A DNA stretch of 64,000 nt from an uncultured cyanobacterium (lineage in GTDB: Bacteria > Cyanobacteriota > Cyanobacteriia > Cyanobacteriales > CAWCAG01), in the NCBI GenBank assembly GCA_963793425.1, contig CAWCAG010000005.1:1280001-1344000 (forward strand). Direction: 5' to 3'. Of the stretch, positions 30,001-36,000 are shown piece after piece (position 1 is the first letter of the stretch; the number at the start of each line of letters is the position of its first letter). The position numbers were made by a program.

Positions 30001-33000
30001 TAGTAGGGGCTGAACTAGAAACTTGACCATTTCTACATAGTTTGGCTTGGTTGGGCTAGCTTGATCAGAGGAAACTTGAGGCTTAAGAGGCATTGACTTG
30101 TTCAAAAACTTGCGCTTTTTTCAAAATGGCACGTACTGTATCTGTAGGCTGGGCCCCTTGTTGGAGGCGCTTAACAATAGCAGGTACGTCTAAGCGGGTT
30201 TCGTTAGTTCTGGGGTTATAAAAACCTAACTCTTCTAAGGGTCGTCCGTCACGACGCACTCTACTGTCCATTGCGACTATGCGATAGCTAGCTTCACGCT
30301 TTTTGCCGTATCTTTTCAATCTTATTTTGATCATCTTCTTAAAATCCTCCTGATCTGATTTTAAAGCCTTTAGGCCACCTTGGCGATGGGGCCTTAGACC
30401 TTAACTATTTAGGTATTTGATTATACTCTACTTCTTCGCTAGAAAAGTTCTCCGAAGCCTTTCTTTTTCTTACCTTTCTTCTTCTTCTTCTTAGAACCTC
30501 CTGAATAGCCGCGAAAACCAGGGCGAGGTGCATTTCCTCCCATACCCCCAAACATTCCTCCTAAGCCGCCTCCCATACCACCCATTCCGGGCATTTCCAT
30601 TCCGGGCATTCCTCCACCTTGCCCCATTTGCTGCATCATGCCTCGCATTCGGGTAAAATCTTTAACTAATTTGCCGACATCGCTTTCTTTAAAGCCGGAA
30701 CCTTTAGCGATGCGGCGGCGACGGCTAGGAGATTTGGCGAGTAAGTTTGGTTCAGTCCTCTCTTCTGGGGTCATGGAATTAATCATGGCTTCAGTACGTT
30801 TGAGTTGTACTTCCCCTTTTTCCAAGTCTGAACTACTCAACTTGCCCATGCCGGGAATCATCTTCATCAATCCCCCCAAAGAACCCATATTTTTCAAGAG
30901 GCGCATTTGTTTAAGGAAGTCATCGAAGCCAAATCTCGCTTCCATGATTTTGGCTTGCATTTCCGCTGCATCAGCGATATCTACTTCTTCCTGGGCTTTT
31001 TCTACCAGGGTTAAGACATCCCCCATGCCCAAAATACGAGAGGCCATACGGTCAGGATAAAAGGGTTGTAGGGCTTCTACTTTCTCCCCTACCCCCACAA
31101 ATTTGATAGGTTGACCAGAAATGCGACGTACAGAAAGGGCTGCCCCGCCACGACTATCTCCATCCAATTTAGTGAGAATGGCCCCAGTGATGCCGATTTG
31201 TTCGTGGAAGGTGTAAGTGAGGTTGGCAGCTTCTTGCCCTGTCATGGCATCTACCACCAGGAGAGTATCGTCAGGTTGAACTGTTTCTTTAATACGTCCC
31301 AACTCTCCCATCATTTCTGGGTCAATTTGCAACCGTCCGGCGGTATCAATGATAACGGTATCAACCCCCATTTCTTGGGCTTTTTCTACCCCTTGACGGG
31401 CAATTTCCACCGGATCAGCATCTTTACCCATTTCAAACACAGGTACATTAATTTGCTGCCCTAAAGTGAGTAATTGGTCAATAGCTGCCGGGCGGTAAAT
31501 ATCTGTAGCCACCATTAAGCAGTCGCGATCTTGCTTCCGCAAATGTAGGGCTAATTTAGCTGTGGCAGTGGTTTTACCTGTACCTTGCAAACCTGCCATC
31601 AAAACCACCGTTGGTTTAGTCTCTGCTTGGGCGAGAGGGACGTTGGTTTCCCCCATAACCTTAACTAATTCATCGTGGACAACTTTAATAAATTGCTGAT
31701 CAGGACGTACCCCAGAAACCACTTCTGACCCTTGGGCTTTGCTTTCTACCTCGGCGATAAAGTTTTTAACCACCTGGAGGTTAACATCCGCAGCTATAAG
31801 GGCGCGACGCACTTCTTTTAAGGCTTCTTGAATATTAGCTTGGGAAATTTTGTCTTGACCGCGTAGCTTTTTCCAAGCATCTTCTAAACGGTCGGCTAGG
31901 GCATCAAACATAATGAATGTATTTGTTGTAAACGATTAATTTAAGTGTTGTGGTAGGGAGTGGGGAGTGGGGAGCAGGGAGCAGTTAATAGTTATTTTAA
32001 AACTTTACTGGTCAATTAACTCGGAGTTAAACTCGTTGAAGGAACGTCTTTTTAATTGTATTGACTCAGAACGAGGCAGGAGATCAAAGACCTCCCGGAA
32101 AACACTATCAATGTCTTCAAACTTAGCTTGTCCAGTTTGGTTAAAGACAATCTCACGATTTTGATTTAGTAAGACAGTCTGAGGAATAGCCCCTTGGTAG
32201 TAATAACCTACTTCTTCAGGATTGTATTCATCCTTGATAGGAATAGAATCAACATTAATGGGTATAAAACTGGCTACTTTGCCATAAAATCGCTGTAGCT
32301 GGGAGATAACCTCAGAAAATCTTTTGCAATCGCTGCTATCTTCTACATAAAAAACTAACAGAGCAACTTTGTCTCTTTGGAAAGATTCCATCAAGGTCAT
32401 GCGGGGCGGAACTAAAGAACCATTTCCAGCATAAAGAGCAAAAATATTCCCATCAAACCTATCATCTTCAAGCCCTGCCGTTGCTGAGGGGGTTCCTAAC
32501 ACTAAGAAACTAATTAGCCCAACCAGGAGCGTTATTGAGCAAAAGCGCAAGGAAATTTTTCTTGAATGGAAGTTATTTAGCCAGTAGCGCAACCGCGAAA
32601 AAATCATAAAGTTCTATTTACCAATTAAATCAGCTATTATTAATAGTACAGCTAGGGGCTGTGGCTCAGTTGGATAGAGCAAGCGCCTCCTGAACAATCG
32701 GGCCTCTTGGGGGAAACCCTAAGTAGTGAATGCGGTCAAATTCAAGGAAGCCTAAGTCTGGTCAAACAGAGAGGGTAATCTTGAGCCAAGCTTATAATTT
32801 GTCGATTCGGCAAGTTATTAAGAAGGTGCAGAGACTGGTTGAATGAGAGCTAAAAATGATGGACTATAATGTCTCATCAAAAGTAGAGCAAAGAGGCATT
32901 CTGACCGGGATGTTATTAGGTGCAAGTAGGAGGAATAAACAAAATTTCTACCTCCAACACCTGAATTTGCCAGAGGAATATGTTTTGTTTAAAAAGCAAC

Positions 33001-36000
33001 TCCTTGAACAAATCATTCGCAAGCCAGTTAGTCTTCGGGAAGAGAAAAGTAGTAAAGGCGAACCCTTGATACGTTTAGAACCAAAGTTGATTCCTTTAAC
33101 TAGGGTTTTGGTTAAGAGGCTTTATCAAGGAACAACACCTATAATTACAAGTAAGTTCCTGCGTTTTTTAACCCCCCCAGGTATAGCAATTTGGTTTATG
33201 GATAAAGGTTCTAAATCTTTTAAGAAGAAGAACGGCAAGATCCATAGCCTAGAAGTTAACTTCAATACCAATATCTGCCAAGCAGAAAATGAATTGATAG
33301 TAGCTTATTTTGCTGAAGTTTGGGGTTTTAAGTGGGGATTAAGCAAAAGTGGAAAGGCTTACCGTTTAAGGATGGGAACGAAAGAAGGTAAAAGATTTTT
33401 TGATTTTCTTCGTCCCTATATCCATCCCGCTATGCTCTACAAAATAGAAACCTCTTGTCAACATAACGGCCGCCACCTAAAAGAGCTTTTGCTCTGATGG
33501 TGAAGGGATAGTCCAGAGAGTAAGGAAACTTACACAAATCTGAAGCGCTAGGTCGCCGGTTCAAATCCGGCCAGTCCCGTTTTTTCAGTGTATGGCTTGC
33601 CGTTTTGTTGATGATCAATTTAGCCACTTGAGTTTAATTTGGTATAAGCAATGGTTGGTTGCCTTTTCTCTGGCAACATTAGCTTTTTTCATGGTGTCTG
33701 CATTTAGCCAACCAGCACAAGCTTTATCATTAGTTGGTAATGACAGCACCGAACAAGTAGAAGAAACTGTTGAGAATGCTAAAGATGCTATTGATTAATT
33801 AACTAGTACTTCGGTTGTATGAGTTTTTGAATTAGGTTTATTTCACTGTCGTGATTGCCTAATTCAATTTTTTTGCTGCGATCGCTTTTTTATTTCAGGC
33901 TTCAGTTAACTTTCAACACTCTAGTAGCATTGAGGATTGCTAAAAGCGCTACCCCTACATCAGCAAATACTGCTTCCCACAGAGTTGCTACCCCAATTGC
34001 TCCTAGCAAAATAAATAGTGCCTTAACTGCCATTGCCAGGATGATGTTTTGCCAAACAATAGAATGAGTTTTACGAGCTATACCTATTGCCTCTGCTACC
34101 TTAGAAGGAGCATCATTCATTAGCACCACATCGGCAGTTTCTATAGCTGCATCAGAACCTAACGCTCCCATTGCTATCCCGACATCTGCTCTCGCAATTA
34201 CCGGTGCATCGTTGATACCATCACCCACGAAAGCTACTTTGCTTTTTTTGTCAGACTGATGAAGATACTGCTCGATTGCTTCTACCTTGTCTTCTGGAAG
34301 CAATTGCGCTTTGTAGGTGTCTAGACCAAGCTTACTGGCAACCCTTCGAGCCACAACTTGGTTATCTCCCGTCAGCATTACAGTTTCGGTGACTCCTGCT
34401 TTTTTCAATCGGGCGATCGCATCTTGAGCATCTTCCTTAATCCTGTCGGAGATTAAGATATAGCCAGCATATTTTCTATCTATTGCTAGATGAACTACCG
34501 TACCTTCAACATTACAAGTATCATGTTCTATCTTTTCTCTGTGTAAGAGGCGATCGTTCCCTGCCAATACTGACATCCCTCTGACTTTAGCACTAATACC
34601 GTGTCCGGGAATTTCTTTATGATCAGCGACATCAGAATCGGTAATAGTAATGTCAGCCGCAGCAATTTGATTGCCGTAAGCTTCAACAATGGATCGCGCC
34701 ACAGGATGATTGGATTGAGATTCGGCGATCGCAGCAATAGTAAGTATTTCTTTTTTCCTATAGCCGTTATAAGCAGTTACTTGAGTAACTTGGAATACAC
34801 CTTCAGTTAACGTTCCAGTTTTATCAAAAATTACCGTTTTAACATTGGTCAAGGCATCGAGAAAAGTCGAACCCTTAACTAAAATACCTCTTTTGGCTGC
34901 ACCACCAACTCCACCAAAGTAACCCAAAGGAATACTAATTACTAATCCGCAGGGACAGGATATAACTAATAATACCAACCCTCGATAAAACCATTGTTCG
35001 CTAGTTGCACCAGGAATGAATAAGGGGGGTAAGATAGCAACTGCTAGAGAGAGAAAAACTACAACGGGAGTGTAGTAACGGGCAAAACGAGTAATAAATT
35101 TCTCTGTTGGAGCTTTTTTACTGCTGGCATTTTCTACCAAGTCCAAAATTTTAGCAATGGAAGATTCGGCAAATATTTTGGTGACTCGAACTTTTAAACT
35201 ACCTGTTTGGTTAATCGCACCTGCTAAGATTGTTTCTCCTTCTCTTACAGTTTGAGGTACGGATTCACCCGTAAGTGCCGAAGTATCAATCTGGGAAGTA
35301 CCTGATAGTATCTCACCATCTAAAGGAACTTTCTCCCCTGGTTTGATCACAATCCTATCTCCAACTTCTACTTTTTCAGGGTTAACTTCTCTTATCACTC
35401 CATCAATAACTAGACTTGCCTTGTCAGGACGTATTTCTAATAGTGACTTAATCGAACGACGTGAGCGCCCCACCGCAAAACCCTGAAACAGTTCTCCAAT
35501 CTGAAAAAACAGCATTACTGCTACCCCTTCGGGTAATTCATGAATTGCGATCGCCCCTAAGGTTGCAATAGTCATCAAAAAGTTCTCATTAAATATTAGA
35601 CCCCGCAAAATATTAGACCCCGCACTGGTTAATACACTCCAACCGCTTATGAAGTAGGCGGGAATTAAAACTGCGTATTCTGCGATCGCACCAGGAGTAT
35701 TATGCAAAGGCTGGTTAAAGATTAATCCAATCAGAAATAGAGCGATCGCAATACTAAGAGGTATTAGTTCTCGACTTAAATTAAACTCACCATGCTCATG
35801 GCTATGATTATGATCCTGATGATGATTTTCATCGGTAGAACAGCAACTAGTGGAATGTTTACCTGACATAATCCAAAACATTTAAACAATTTTTATAAAT
35901 GAACAATTGAATAGTTATTCAGATAATATCTCCAAAAAAGTTATTTAGCAATAGATAACAGGAAGAATTAAACTTCGTCTAAGTGTTCGGCTACTTCACG

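Follow-up and report, generated by a model that had tools for sequence, protein, structure and literature searches.

The window, the 64,000-nt stretch of cyanobacterial DNA analysed here, holds at 32655-33579 the only tRNA-Arg(CCU) gene found in the genome, which a group I intron splits directly 3' of the anticodon. The exons, the intron helices and the open reading frame (ORF) carried by the intron are arranged as follows.

32655..32691, + strand: 5' exon of tRNA-Arg(CCU), 37 nt, with the acceptor 5' strand, D arm, anticodon stem 5' strand, loop C-U and anticodon CCU (sequence, and ARAGORN on the joined exons and with -i)
32689..32702, + strand: P1, exon C-C-U and intron G-A (32689-32693) paired with U-C-G-G-G (32698-32702), read from the sequence
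32692..33542, + strand: group I intron, 851 nt, between the third anticodon base and position 37, with first base G and last base G (omega-G 33542)
32703..32728, + strand: P2 hairpin, GAAA tetraloop at 32713-32716, read from the sequence
32732..32737, + strand: P3 5' strand GCGGTC, pairing with 33468-33473
32741..32827, + strand: P4-P5-P6 domain, with P4 32741-32747 paired with 32779-32785, P5 32750-32775 and P6/P6a 32786-32827 (Rfam and alignment)
32833..32836, + strand: P7 5' strand GACT, pairing with AGTC at 33510-33513
32839..32849, + strand: 5' strand of an extra hairpin between P7 and P3' (sequence and relatives)
32856..33497, + strand: ORF of 213 aa for a monomeric LAGLIDADG_2 protein with two motifs, of the I-SceI/I-WcaI type, motif 1 ending G-A-S and motif 2 reading F-M-D-K-G; in relatives the start is the second ATG (32859)
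33452..33461, + strand: 3' strand of the extra hairpin, CTCTTGTCAA, inside the ORF end
33468..33473, + strand: P3 3' strand GGCCGC (sequence and alignment)
33474..33502, + strand: P8 hairpin, outer stem CACC...GGTG and inner stem GAGC/GCTC, with the ORF stop codon (33495-33497) in its 3' strand
33503..33514, + strand: J8/7 and P7 3' strand, with AGTC at 33510-33513
33520..33533, + strand: P9 hairpin, GAAA tetraloop at 33525-33528
33543..33579, + strand: 3' exon of tRNA-Arg(CCU), 37 nt, with A37-A38, anticodon stem 3' strand, variable loop, T arm, acceptor 3' strand and discriminator G (sequence and ARAGORN)

The joined exons fold into a 74-nt cloverleaf at -32.1 kcal/mol and are called tRNA-Arg(cct) by ARAGORN, which, with introns allowed, reports tRNA-Arg(cct) i(38,851) for the genomic sequence. 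CCA is unencoded, and a T run directly follows the 3' exon. Default ARAGORN calls no tRNA in the whole 64-kb window and 50 tRNAs across all nine contigs of the genome; the arginine set comprises acg (one), ccg (one) and tct (two), with cct absent, and no second CCU tRNA turned up in this search. The genome-wide survey's note had described a sole tRNA-Arg(CCU) gene missed by the tRNA table, two 37-nt exons around an 851-nt intron directly 3' of the anticodon, and a cloverleaf of this length and energy, all of which was reproduced. AGG is used about 5.9 times per 1000 codons in long open frames. The two-gene tRNA-Arg(UCU) can probably read AGG by wobble, so the CCU tRNA need not be essential.

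That the intron is group I, as the same note proposed, is borne out by the Rfam score, U-1, omega-G, the P1-P9 core and helix covariation in ORF-less relatives. Rfam Intron_gpI matches 32679-33006 with 53.2 bits (E 5.8e-12; gathering score 50) in an alignment meaningful only in its 5' half (P1-P7), the 3' half falling on the ORF start; the actual 3' core occupies 33468-33542. This is the only Intron_gpI match genome-wide, and four ORF-less relatives score 51.6-73.2 bits. Among 53 ORF-less relatives, compensatory changes occur in 36 of 68 helix pairs and 97.3% of cells are paired, compared with 33-39% in slid controls, and the observed values were reached by none of 500 shuffles. The splice-site wobble pair U32691/G32700 in P1 is U-G in 53/53 of these relatives (alignment A2, columns 10/21). 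Compensatory change is seen in eight of the ten P2 pairs and four of the six P3 pairs, the window having C-G in P3 where most carry U-A. The P7 5' strand is invariant in 53/53 sequences, making covariation impossible there, and the J8/7-P7 3' region is part of a 23-nt core motif common to tRNA(CAU) and tRNA-Arg(UCU) introns of other phyla. The extra hairpin occurs in 31 of the 53, with compensatory changes in 4/6 pairs, and the anticodon stem of the tRNA covaries across the intron in 2/5 pairs. The window intron keeps 53 of 58 consensus pairs, its five misses lying in P2 (three, a matter of register) and inner P6a.

The intron is widespread in the order, confirming the claim that it interrupts this tRNA, with or without the ORF, in many Cyanobacteriales. 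The 3' junction motif is present in 182/401 sampled genomes and the uninterrupted junction in 76/401, with reversed-motif controls at four genomes and one genome, respectively; the single genome with both motifs carries the uninterrupted one only in a truncated tRNA fragment. The junction is identical in 127/127 loci (exon ...CCT, intron G...G, exon AA...), and tRNA-Arg(cct) with an intron at the same site was recovered in all 29 further full-length loci and all 20 fetched short loci. Full-length matches (1-925, 67-91% identity) in 52 of 400 other sampled genomes, and two-piece matches in five more (G170, G119, G218, G154, G137), reproduce the survey's figures. Among the matches listed, 66 of 77 introns are shorter than 400 nt, and ORF-less introns with the same core are several times commoner than ORF-bearing ones. 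ORF-less derivatives keep the hairpin stem, and one also keeps a stretch resembling the ORF leader.

The ORF matches Pfam LAGLIDADG_2 at 3e-29 (102.5 bits), and its final stretch, the last 10 codons with the TGA stop, shares sequence with P3' and P8. A Shine-Dalgarno-like GAGAG lies 7-11 nt upstream of the first ATG, within the 5' strand of the extra hairpin, and is a putative ribosome site. An AlphaFold2 model of the protein (pLDDT 87.6) is closest in Foldseek to I-WcaI (6x1j, TM 0.75) and I-SceI (1r7m, TM 0.74), which share its Pfam family, its fold and the arrangement of the two LAGLIDADG helices, although identity is about 20% and their hosts are organellar rRNA introns rather than a bacterial tRNA intron. 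Counting residues from the second ATG, model helix 8-20 stops at G21-A22 and helix 106-116 at K116-G117. In I-SceI the corresponding acids are D44 and D145, which we take to be the catalytic residues; both positions are replaced in the window copy, where Ala closes the motif 1 helix and Lys that of motif 2. The Lys is set opposite D145 by phmmer, which aligns FMDKGS of the window with FMDDGG of I-SceI, while the motif 1 assignment is based on position in the family alignment and on the model, the HMMER alignment to 6x1j being out of register there. An invariant Asp (D115) adjoins the Lys of motif 2, and an unconventional active site is conceivable.

Both acids are present in eight of 30 ORF loci, one in six and none in 14, with two loci having an unmatched motif 1 pattern and R or K in motif 2; for 120 cluster representatives the counts are 34, 19 and 67. 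The motif 2 position is Lys or Arg in most copies with neither acid, and the window falls in a starred five-row clade lacking both acids throughout, within a 32-row group of the same kind; such clades contain deep internal branches. Because Ala and Lys occupy both catalytic-acid positions, an active nuclease is unlikely in the window copy, and the protein is probably not an active homing endonuclease. The survey's designation of the ORF as a LAGLIDADG homing endonuclease therefore stands for the family, but not for an active enzyme.

The ORF copies without catalytic acids evolve under purifying selection. In 29 of 30 loci the frame stays open for 207 codons or more, and dN/dS for pairs without either acid is 0.21 (L002-L003), 0.26 (L004-L006) and 0.15-0.18 (L021/L026/L027), at dS 0.14-0.6 and with pS exceeding pN (Fisher p 1e-9 to 2e-6). 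Truncation is seen in one of the 30 (L029), and in some the usual ATG is missing. A frame change sets the C-terminus of the window ORF apart from that of most relatives and carries the ORF into P3'/P8, which could be early decay.

A tRNA-Arg group I intron was reportedly first described in Agrobacterium and other alpha-proteobacteria. Arg.5Ug, in tRNA-Arg at the same loop position, counts among the four classical types of group I intron in bacterial tRNA genes and is placed in subgroup IC3 by database citation in a study that mapped 5292 tRNA group I introns, with cyanobacteria the phylum of highest frequency (Williams 2020, bioRxiv 10.1101/2020.01.27.920355). Neither the tRNA-Arg(CCU) intron of cyanobacteria nor the ORF in it was found described in searchable literature text, a scope outside which the per-phylum table of that study falls. 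The survey's word "overlooked" is thus only partly justified, fitting the lack of such a description but not a classical type in a catalogued set. Arg.5Ug resembles the cyanobacterial intron in its site after the fifth anticodon-loop base, U-1, omega-G and small tRNA-type core, and the host in five Pseudomonadota examples is also tRNA-Arg(cct); it differs in phylum, and those five introns are 229-255 nt and ORF-less. In the trees, Pseudomonadota Arg introns form a starred clade beside tRNA-Leu(UAA) introns and cyanobacterial Arg(CCU) introns group with tRNA(CAU) introns (support 88 and 67, unstarred), a single Arg(CCU) clade being unrejected (AU test p 0.30). The model of the tRNA-Ile2(CAU) type (Ile2.5Ug) is the Azoarcus intron. 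Ile2.5Ug of beta-proteobacteria is the nearest group to the cyanobacterial introns in the best trees, sharing the loop position, the exact 23-nt core motif and the direct P7-to-P3' junction of the hairpin-less cyanobacterial form; both groups were picked by that motif, which favours likeness, and without its columns the grouping stays with low support. Ile2.5Ug differs in host tRNA and P1 guide sequence, at 188-224 nt and ORF-less in 22 examples seen.

Precedents also exist for the protein. LAGLIDADG maturases (yeast bI3, 2ab5; I-AniI, 1p8k; the Thermotoga neapolitana 23S intron protein) are likewise encoded within group I introns. In such cases the ORF persists either without nuclease activity, as for bI3, or alongside it. 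The bI3 maturase, Foldseek rank 7, is structurally less like the window protein than the nucleases are (TM 0.56 vs 0.75). The Thermotoga neapolitana protein offers a bacterial precedent for maturase-like activity (cited in PMC3984707). A cyanobacterial tRNA group I intron with an endonuclease gene is likewise found in tRNA-fMet of Synechocystis PCC 6803, where I-Ssp6803I is aimed at the anticodon region (PMC1995217). That enzyme differs in belonging to the PD-(D/E)XK family, in tRNA and loop position, and in having been shown active, which the window protein probably is not.

Several explanations of the ORF were weighed. An active homing endonuclease, cutting uninterrupted tRNA-Arg(CCU) genes and spreading the intron via double-strand-break repair, would suit the family, the intact ORF with its Shine-Dalgarno-like run before the ATG, the uninterrupted alleles in 76 genomes of the order and the 34 of 120 relatives that, with both acids retained, are plausibly active, but the Ala and Lys of the window protein, in a clade wholly without catalytic acids, make it improbable. 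The lost catalytic residues could also mark a functionless homing-endonuclease relic in an invasion-decay-loss cycle, the intron splicing alone; the common ORF-less derivatives with their retained stem and, once, a leader-like stretch, the truncated and ATG-less ORFs and the C-terminal frame change of the window all fit. Neutral decay, however, would predict dN/dS near 1 and many stops, and the dN/dS of 0.15-0.26 between copies lacking both acids, the 29 open frames and the deep internal branches of acid-less clades leave a relic unlikely.

Purifying selection despite missing canonical acids might instead reflect a non-splicing role, for example site-specific binding to DNA, at the tRNA-Arg locus or at another site, with regulation, allele protection or nicking through an unconventional active site as variants. 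Lys or Arg in motif 2 would retain positive charge at the nucleic-acid interface, and the fold lies closer to DNA-bound I-SceI and I-WcaI than to the bI3 maturase; yet in the loci seen the ORF gene occurs only inside the tRNA-Arg(CCU) intron, tying its fate to that of the intron, and such a role is a minor possibility. A dead tRNA gene with an inert insertion, suggested by the silence of standard tRNA finders, is very improbable given exons conserved and cloverleaf-forming in every locus examined, compensatory anticodon-stem changes across the intron, covarying ribozyme helices and the use of AGG in a genome with no other CCU tRNA found.

The favoured reading, of moderate confidence, is a small bacterial tRNA-type group I intron whose ORF protein is a former nuclease kept by selection in a maturase-like capacity. 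Once pre-tRNA-Arg(CCU) is transcribed, the intron would fold with P3-P8 and P4-P6 as its core and GAAA tetraloops on P2 and P9, P1 placing its U-G wobble at the 5' splice site. By the standard group I pathway, guanosine would attack after U32691, omega-G 33542 would dock and exon ligation would yield the 74-nt tRNA. The 212/213-aa ORF, housed in the loop of the extra P7-P3' hairpin, presumably descends from a homing endonuclease with the uninterrupted tRNA-Arg(CCU) gene as its target. ORF-bearing introns, including that of the window, retain an intact core and GAAA tetraloops on both P2 and P9, which together with the greater frequency of ORF-less forms among the matches listed counts against a needed maturase; the intron RNA gives no sign of acquired protein dependence, and ORF-less sister introns suggest that it can manage alone. 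In the window's lineage nuclease activity has most likely been lost, and the most likely reason for conservation of the ORF would be a maturase-like role, another nucleic-acid-binding role being possible: the protein would help its own intron fold and splice, with core halves about 630 nt apart.

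At window positions 32655-33579, an 851-nt insert divides a tRNA sequence into halves of 37 nt each. The joined exons form a 74-nt molecule that folds into a cloverleaf at -32.1 kcal/mol (ViennaRNA) and is called tRNA-Arg(cct) by ARAGORN, which, with introns allowed, reports the genomic DNA as tRNA-Arg(cct) i(38,851). The anticodon CCT closes the 5' exon, a G stands at both ends of the insert, and AA opens the 3' exon, placing the insertion between anticodon base 36 and position 37. Default ARAGORN finds zero tRNAs across the entire window and 50 over the 9 contigs (5.28 Mb), those for arginine being acg, ccg and two tct; no cct tRNA was found elsewhere in the genome by this search of all 9 contigs. 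The locus is also the sole Intron_gpI match genome-wide. The coordinates and figures of the genome-wide survey's note were all reproduced, among them the 53.2 bits that Rfam gives for 32679-33006, and its account of the tRNA gene, the intron and their distribution proved right by ARAGORN, Rfam and the genome sample. The elements of the locus are as follows.

Window 32005-32607, (-): 200-aa ORF flanking the tRNA gene on the opposite strand
Window 32655-33579: tRNA-Arg(CCU) gene with its intron
Window 32856-33497, (+): intronic LAGLIDADG ORF
Window 33902-35881, (-): 659-aa ORF on the other flank, opposite strand, reading like a heavy-metal P-type ATPase

A search for sigma-70-like promoters gave nothing upstream of the tRNA gene; its sole promoter-like match lies within the intron, at the ORF start. 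Elsewhere in the same genome, the tRNA that classically bears an intron in cyanobacteria, tRNA-Leu(UAA), is called without one (C1:117811-117894, default ARAGORN), and the second tRNA-Arg(tct) lies near an extra tRNA-Met(cat) at C9:703878-705367, a pairing that resembles the accessory tRNA clusters of some cyanobacteria.

Group I identity is supported by Rfam RF00028, which scores the window intron at 53.2 bits against a gathering score of 50; a whole-genome search under different filters gave the same locus 47.7 bits, below the cut-off. The score is borderline because the 3' half of the alignment falls on ORF sequence: the alignment is trustworthy for P1-P7 only, and its 3' half (P3', P8, P7', P9) is spurious, being set on the ORF start. 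Four ORF-less relatives align end to end at 73.2, 67, 54.5 and 51.6 bits, and all of their surplus sequence is placed between the P7 5' strand and P3'. Group I introns bearing an ORF between P7 and P3' will often score near or below the gathering score.

Comparative evidence for the fold comes from an alignment of 53 non-redundant ORF-less relatives with 10 nt of exon on each side. RNAalifold predicted 65 pairs, of which 32 show compensation. In a hand-written structure that adds P7 and an extra hairpin, the share of paired cells is 97.3%, and changes on both sides occur in 36 of the 68 pairs. Control structures slid by 1-3 columns were only 33-39% paired, and none of 500 shuffles attained the observed values. 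Covariation was found in P2, P3, P4, P5, P6a and P8, and likewise, across the intron, in the anticodon stem of the tRNA; P7 is invariant in this alignment and uninformative in this respect. The P1 wobble is U-G in all 53 sequences, and U at -1 and G as the final intron base occur in 127 of 127 loci. With the ORF excised by script, the window intron keeps 53 of the 58 consensus pairs; two of the missing five belong to inner P6a and three to P2, which in the window pairs in a register peculiar to it, with 7 bp under a GAAA loop. From the pairs kept, the ribozyme core is intact. Self-splicing with guanosine is predicted.

Two architectures are distinguished in the same alignment. Of the 53 introns, 31 bear the extra hairpin between P7 and P3', in which four of six pairs covary, and these 31 introns have a P4 of a single sequence type. 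The other 22 pass directly from P7 into P3', with a different P4 type and added P5/P6 sequence. The window intron and all LAGLIDADG-bearing forms are of the hairpin type, with the ORF occupying the hairpin loop. In most copies the ORF stops immediately 5' of P3', 57-64 nt before the intron end; in the window a late frame change leads to read-through of P3' into P8, with TGA 45 nt before the intron end. A GAGAG run 7-11 nt ahead of the first ATG lies in the hairpin 5' strand, paired with the 3' strand, and the folded intron would thereby hide the ribosome site of the ORF. One ORF-less hairpin form retains a stretch resembling the ORF leader. Given this stretch and the common P4 type, the ORF-less hairpin forms may be descendants that lost the ORF by deletion.

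The intron is widespread in the order. Full 925-nt matches at 67-91% identity were obtained in 52 of the 400 other sampled genomes, with matches in two pieces in five more. Each of the 29 full-length loci fetched is a tRNA-Arg(cct) gene interrupted at this site by 832-917 nt of intron; in all 20 short loci fetched, the intron at this site measures 242-349 nt. The exact 3'-junction motif occurs in 182 of 401 genomes (its reversed control in 4) and the uninterrupted-junction motif in 76 of 401 (control in 1); these counts are lower bounds, as variant exons are missed, and 144 of 401 genomes have neither motif. These exact motifs replaced a BLAST count by the 5' intron part (133 of 401, E <= 1e-10), which was insensitive and also unspecific because some matches were second loci, probably other tRNA introns. 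Both motifs occur together in one genome only, where the uninterrupted one belongs to a truncated tRNA fragment. In that genome (L256, G169:C50:4300-8300, at about 700-880 and 2818-3148) the intron-bearing tRNA-Arg(CCU) gene and the fragment lie 2 kb apart; the fragment has the spliced-type junction and runs from the anticodon loop to the 3' end without a T arm, and may be the attachment-site remnant of an integrated element once aimed at the uninterrupted allele.

A scan with a 23-nt core motif, one genome per species, gave at least 120 loci, which were sorted by ARAGORN.

Table. Loci with the 23-nt core motif, counted among the matches listed
tRNA-Arg(cct) with intron: 77; records titled cyanobacteria, uncultured bacteria or Candidatus Sericytochromatia
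tRNA(cat) with intron: 22; mostly beta-proteobacteria
tRNA-Arg(tct) with intron: 5; Rhodothermales included
Doubtful ARAGORN call: 1
No ARAGORN call, loci cut: 15

Carriers include Nostoc linckia NIES-25, Spirulina subsalsa FACHB-351, Planktothrix paucivesiculata PCC 9631, Okeania hirsuta, several Microcoleus, Prochloron didemni, the Epithemia turgida spheroid body, Phormidesmis MAGs and one Sericytochromatia MAG. The junction is CCT / G...G / AA in 127 of 127 loci. Among the 77 Arg(cct) introns in the matches listed, 66 measure 201-357 nt, three 674-712 nt and eight 867-969 nt. The ORF-less intron is kept in tRNA-Arg(CCU) by the Epithemia turgida spheroid body, whose genome is strongly reduced (L072, NZ_AP012549.1, 2.79 Mb), and by Prochloron didemni (L076), at 261 and 265 nt, respectively. 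Introns of about 194-204 nt with the core motif occur in tRNA-Arg(UCU) of Rhodothermales-type MAGs (L108, L115, L135, L156, L168), and one tRNA(CAU) intron with the motif (L059) lies on a contig assigned to an Akkermansia muciniphila MAG, perhaps through a binning error.

Four classical types of bacterial tRNA group I intron are recognized, Leu.3Ug, Arg.5Ug, fMet.2Ug and Ile2.5Ug, all listed as IC3 (10.1101/2020.01.27.920355). The window intron has the features of Arg.5Ug: a tRNA-Arg host, insertion after the fifth base of the anticodon loop, U-1 and omega-G. Likeness to tRNA(CAU) introns and that preprint's listing point toward subgroup IC3, whose architecture combines a small P2 and P9 with tetraloops and has no P7.1/P7.2 like those of IA. 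The extra hairpin between P7 and P3' falls outside the usual plan. A plasmid search for the alpha-proteobacterial tRNA-Arg intron retrieved Bradyrhizobium tRNA-Leu(UAA) introns only; among 391 sampled Pseudomonadota genomes, matches to a cyanobacterial ORF-less intron occurred in 18, five of these matches being tRNA-Arg(cct) introns of 229-255 nt. The cyanobacterial intron may belong to the proteobacterial Arg lineage or be a relative of the tRNA(CAU) introns that moved to tRNA-Arg. In trees of 72-74 introns, the five Pseudomonadota Arg introns form a starred clade adjoining the tRNA-Leu(UAA) introns, and the tRNA(CAU) introns are joined to the cyanobacterial Arg(CCU) introns with a support of 88, or 67 without the motif columns, neither being starred. 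A single clade of all Arg(CCU) introns is absent from the best tree and is not rejected by the AU test (p 0.30).

In the same Pseudomonadota sample, four loci called tRNA-Phe(aaa/gaa) by ARAGORN (L263, L270, L271, L272) have introns that fall among the tRNA-Leu(UAA) introns in the tree, and are probably tRNA-Leu(UAA) genes with misplaced splice sites. The 22-49 nt "group I introns" listed for cyanobacterial tRNA-Arg(ACG), Gly and Lys in PMC5733544 fall far below the length of a group I ribozyme and have no relation to the present intron.

The ORF encodes 213 aa, or 212 from the second ATG, the start used by relatives, and matches Pfam LAGLIDADG_2 over the entire profile (102.5 bits against a cut-off of 25). 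An AlphaFold2 model built from 23 relatives (pLDDT 87.6) has the two-domain fold with two central LAGLIDADG helices. Its top Foldseek matches are I-WcaI (TM 0.75) and I-SceI (TM 0.74), monomeric two-motif enzymes that are nearest in fold to the window protein, with the bI3 maturase at rank 7 (TM 0.56). In LAGLIDADG enzymes, an acidic residue at each helix end binds the catalytic metal. The helices of the window protein span residues 8-20 and 106-116, numbered from the second ATG, and end in G21-A22-S23 and D115-K116-G117. The phmmer alignment against PDB sets F-M-D-K-G-S of the window opposite F-M-D-D-G-G of I-SceI, which places Lys at D145, one of the two residues (D44 and D145) that we take to be its catalytic acids. 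The equivalence in motif 1 is based on the family alignment and the structure model; the HMMER alignment to 6x1j was not used there, its N-terminus being out of register with low posterior. Both acids are thus replaced in the window, by Ala in motif 1 and Lys in motif 2. The earlier label of a homing endonuclease therefore needs qualifying, as this copy has probably lost nuclease activity.

Table. Acids (Asp/Glu) at the two LAGLIDADG helix ends
30 ORF loci: both acids 8; one 6; none 14; unclear 2
120 cluster representatives (best 120 of 137 protein-search matches, E <= 1e-5): both acids 34; one 19; none 67; unclear 0

Among the best 120 of the 137 matches, the commonest motif-2 replacement is Lys or Arg. 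A FastTree phylogeny of these representatives, run without the two catalytic columns, places the window in a starred five-row clade lacking both acids, within a 32-row no-acid group, and its starred branches require a minimum of 7 switches between "both" and "not both". In public databases, relatives from many cyanobacteria are labelled "DNA endonuclease" or "LAGLIDADG endonuclease". One both-acid relative at 53% identity (P0119) is labelled as a Pyrinomonadaceae (Acidobacteriota) MAG, which may indicate transfer beyond cyanobacteria or a binning error. A phage or virus vector was considered and set aside, the nearest viral relatives having only 38% identity (viral contigs) or about 32% (phage records).

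The frame is stop-free over at least 207 codons in 29 of the 30 loci, one ending at 125, and dN/dS is low in copies with and without the acids.

Table. dN/dS (Nei-Gojobori) between related ORF copies
Window and congener (L002-L003), neither acid: 0.21
L004-L006, neither acid: 0.26
L021, L026, L027, neither acid: 0.15-0.18
L007-L008, both acids: 0.12

For the pairs without either acid, dS is 0.14-0.60 and synonymous differences exceed non-synonymous ones per site (Fisher p 1e-9 to 2e-6). The ORF lies almost wholly in a loop, so RNA structure cannot account for this constraint, and purifying selection in copies without the acids argues that the protein is kept for a purpose other than canonical cleavage. 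We favour a maturase-like role on these comparative grounds, because the fate of the ORF gene is bound to that of the intron and because the ORF separates the core halves by about 630 nt. Against a dependence on the protein, ORF-less sister introns are common and ORF-bearing RNAs retain their tetraloops and core; such dependence is therefore not evident. The stronger proposal, that in many cyanobacteria the I-SceI-type endonuclease of the tRNA-Arg(CCU) intron has long been non-catalytic and is kept as an intron-specific splicing factor, is tentative and, on balance, rather unlikely. If it were true, bacterial tRNA maturation would depend on an intron-encoded protein.

Three hairpin-less tRNA-Arg(CCU) introns carry a different gene, an HNH ORF of 153 aa, at the following positions within the fetched loci.

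L074:404-862, (-)
L081:1170-1628, (+)
L122:433-891, (-)

The hosts are two Phormidesmis/Phormidesmidales MAGs (introns of 704 and 712 nt) and Pelatocladus sp. BLCC-F211 (674 nt). The ORF is antisense to the tRNA and lies upstream of P7. Its N-terminus is rich in Cys, an HNH_2 domain occupies its C-terminal part (Pfam 1.2e-7 and 4.1e-12), and tblastn found no likeness to the LAGLIDADG ORF. It represents a second, independent endonuclease-gene invasion of the tRNA-Arg(CCU) intron, giving two such invasions of one intron: the sense LAGLIDADG gene between P7 and P3', and the antisense HNH gene upstream of P7. A 357-nt Brasilonema intron (L101) seemingly holds a remnant.

The searchable full text, which left most subscription journals and the preprint's phylum table and supplements outside its scope, yielded no paper on a cyanobacterial tRNA-Arg(CCU) group I intron or its LAGLIDADG ORF. 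In the parts consulted, a 2007 compilation gives LAGLIDADG genes of bacterial group I introns in rRNA genes only, and four bacterial tRNA genes with introns (PMC1995217); a 2014 review makes no mention of the cyanobacterial Arg(CCU) intron in its accessible sections (PMC3984707); the available portion of a 2017 paper states that in cyanobacteria introns had been reported for tRNA-Leu and tRNA-fMet only (PMC5733544); and the relevant passages of the tRNAscan-SE 2.0 paper name the fMet and Ile2 cases only (PMC8450103). The survey's description of the gene as overlooked nevertheless needs qualifying, as a tRNA-Arg intron at the same loop position is a classical type (10.1101/2020.01.27.920355). 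Three points seem undescribed: how prevalent the cyanobacterial intron is, the decay of the catalytic sites in an ORF that stays under purifying selection, and the antisense HNH gene in the hairpin-less form.

Knowledge of group I introns is unchanged in kind by these results. Standard tRNA finders overlook the gene, and by the 3' junction motif alone 182 of 401 sampled Cyanobacteriales genomes have an interrupted tRNA-Arg(CCU). For much of the phylum, therefore, anticodon tables and models of codon usage are in error, as are claims that cyanobacteria lack tRNA-Arg(CCU). The LAGLIDADG ORF persists for long periods without its catalytic acids, under purifying selection, a bacterial case in which the escape of selfish endonucleases from the cycle of invasion, decay and loss can readily be studied. 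Within a single intron of a single tRNA, and in culturable strains, there are copies with both, one or none of the acids as well as ORF-less derivatives; along this natural series the proposed transition from endonuclease to maturase could be traced.
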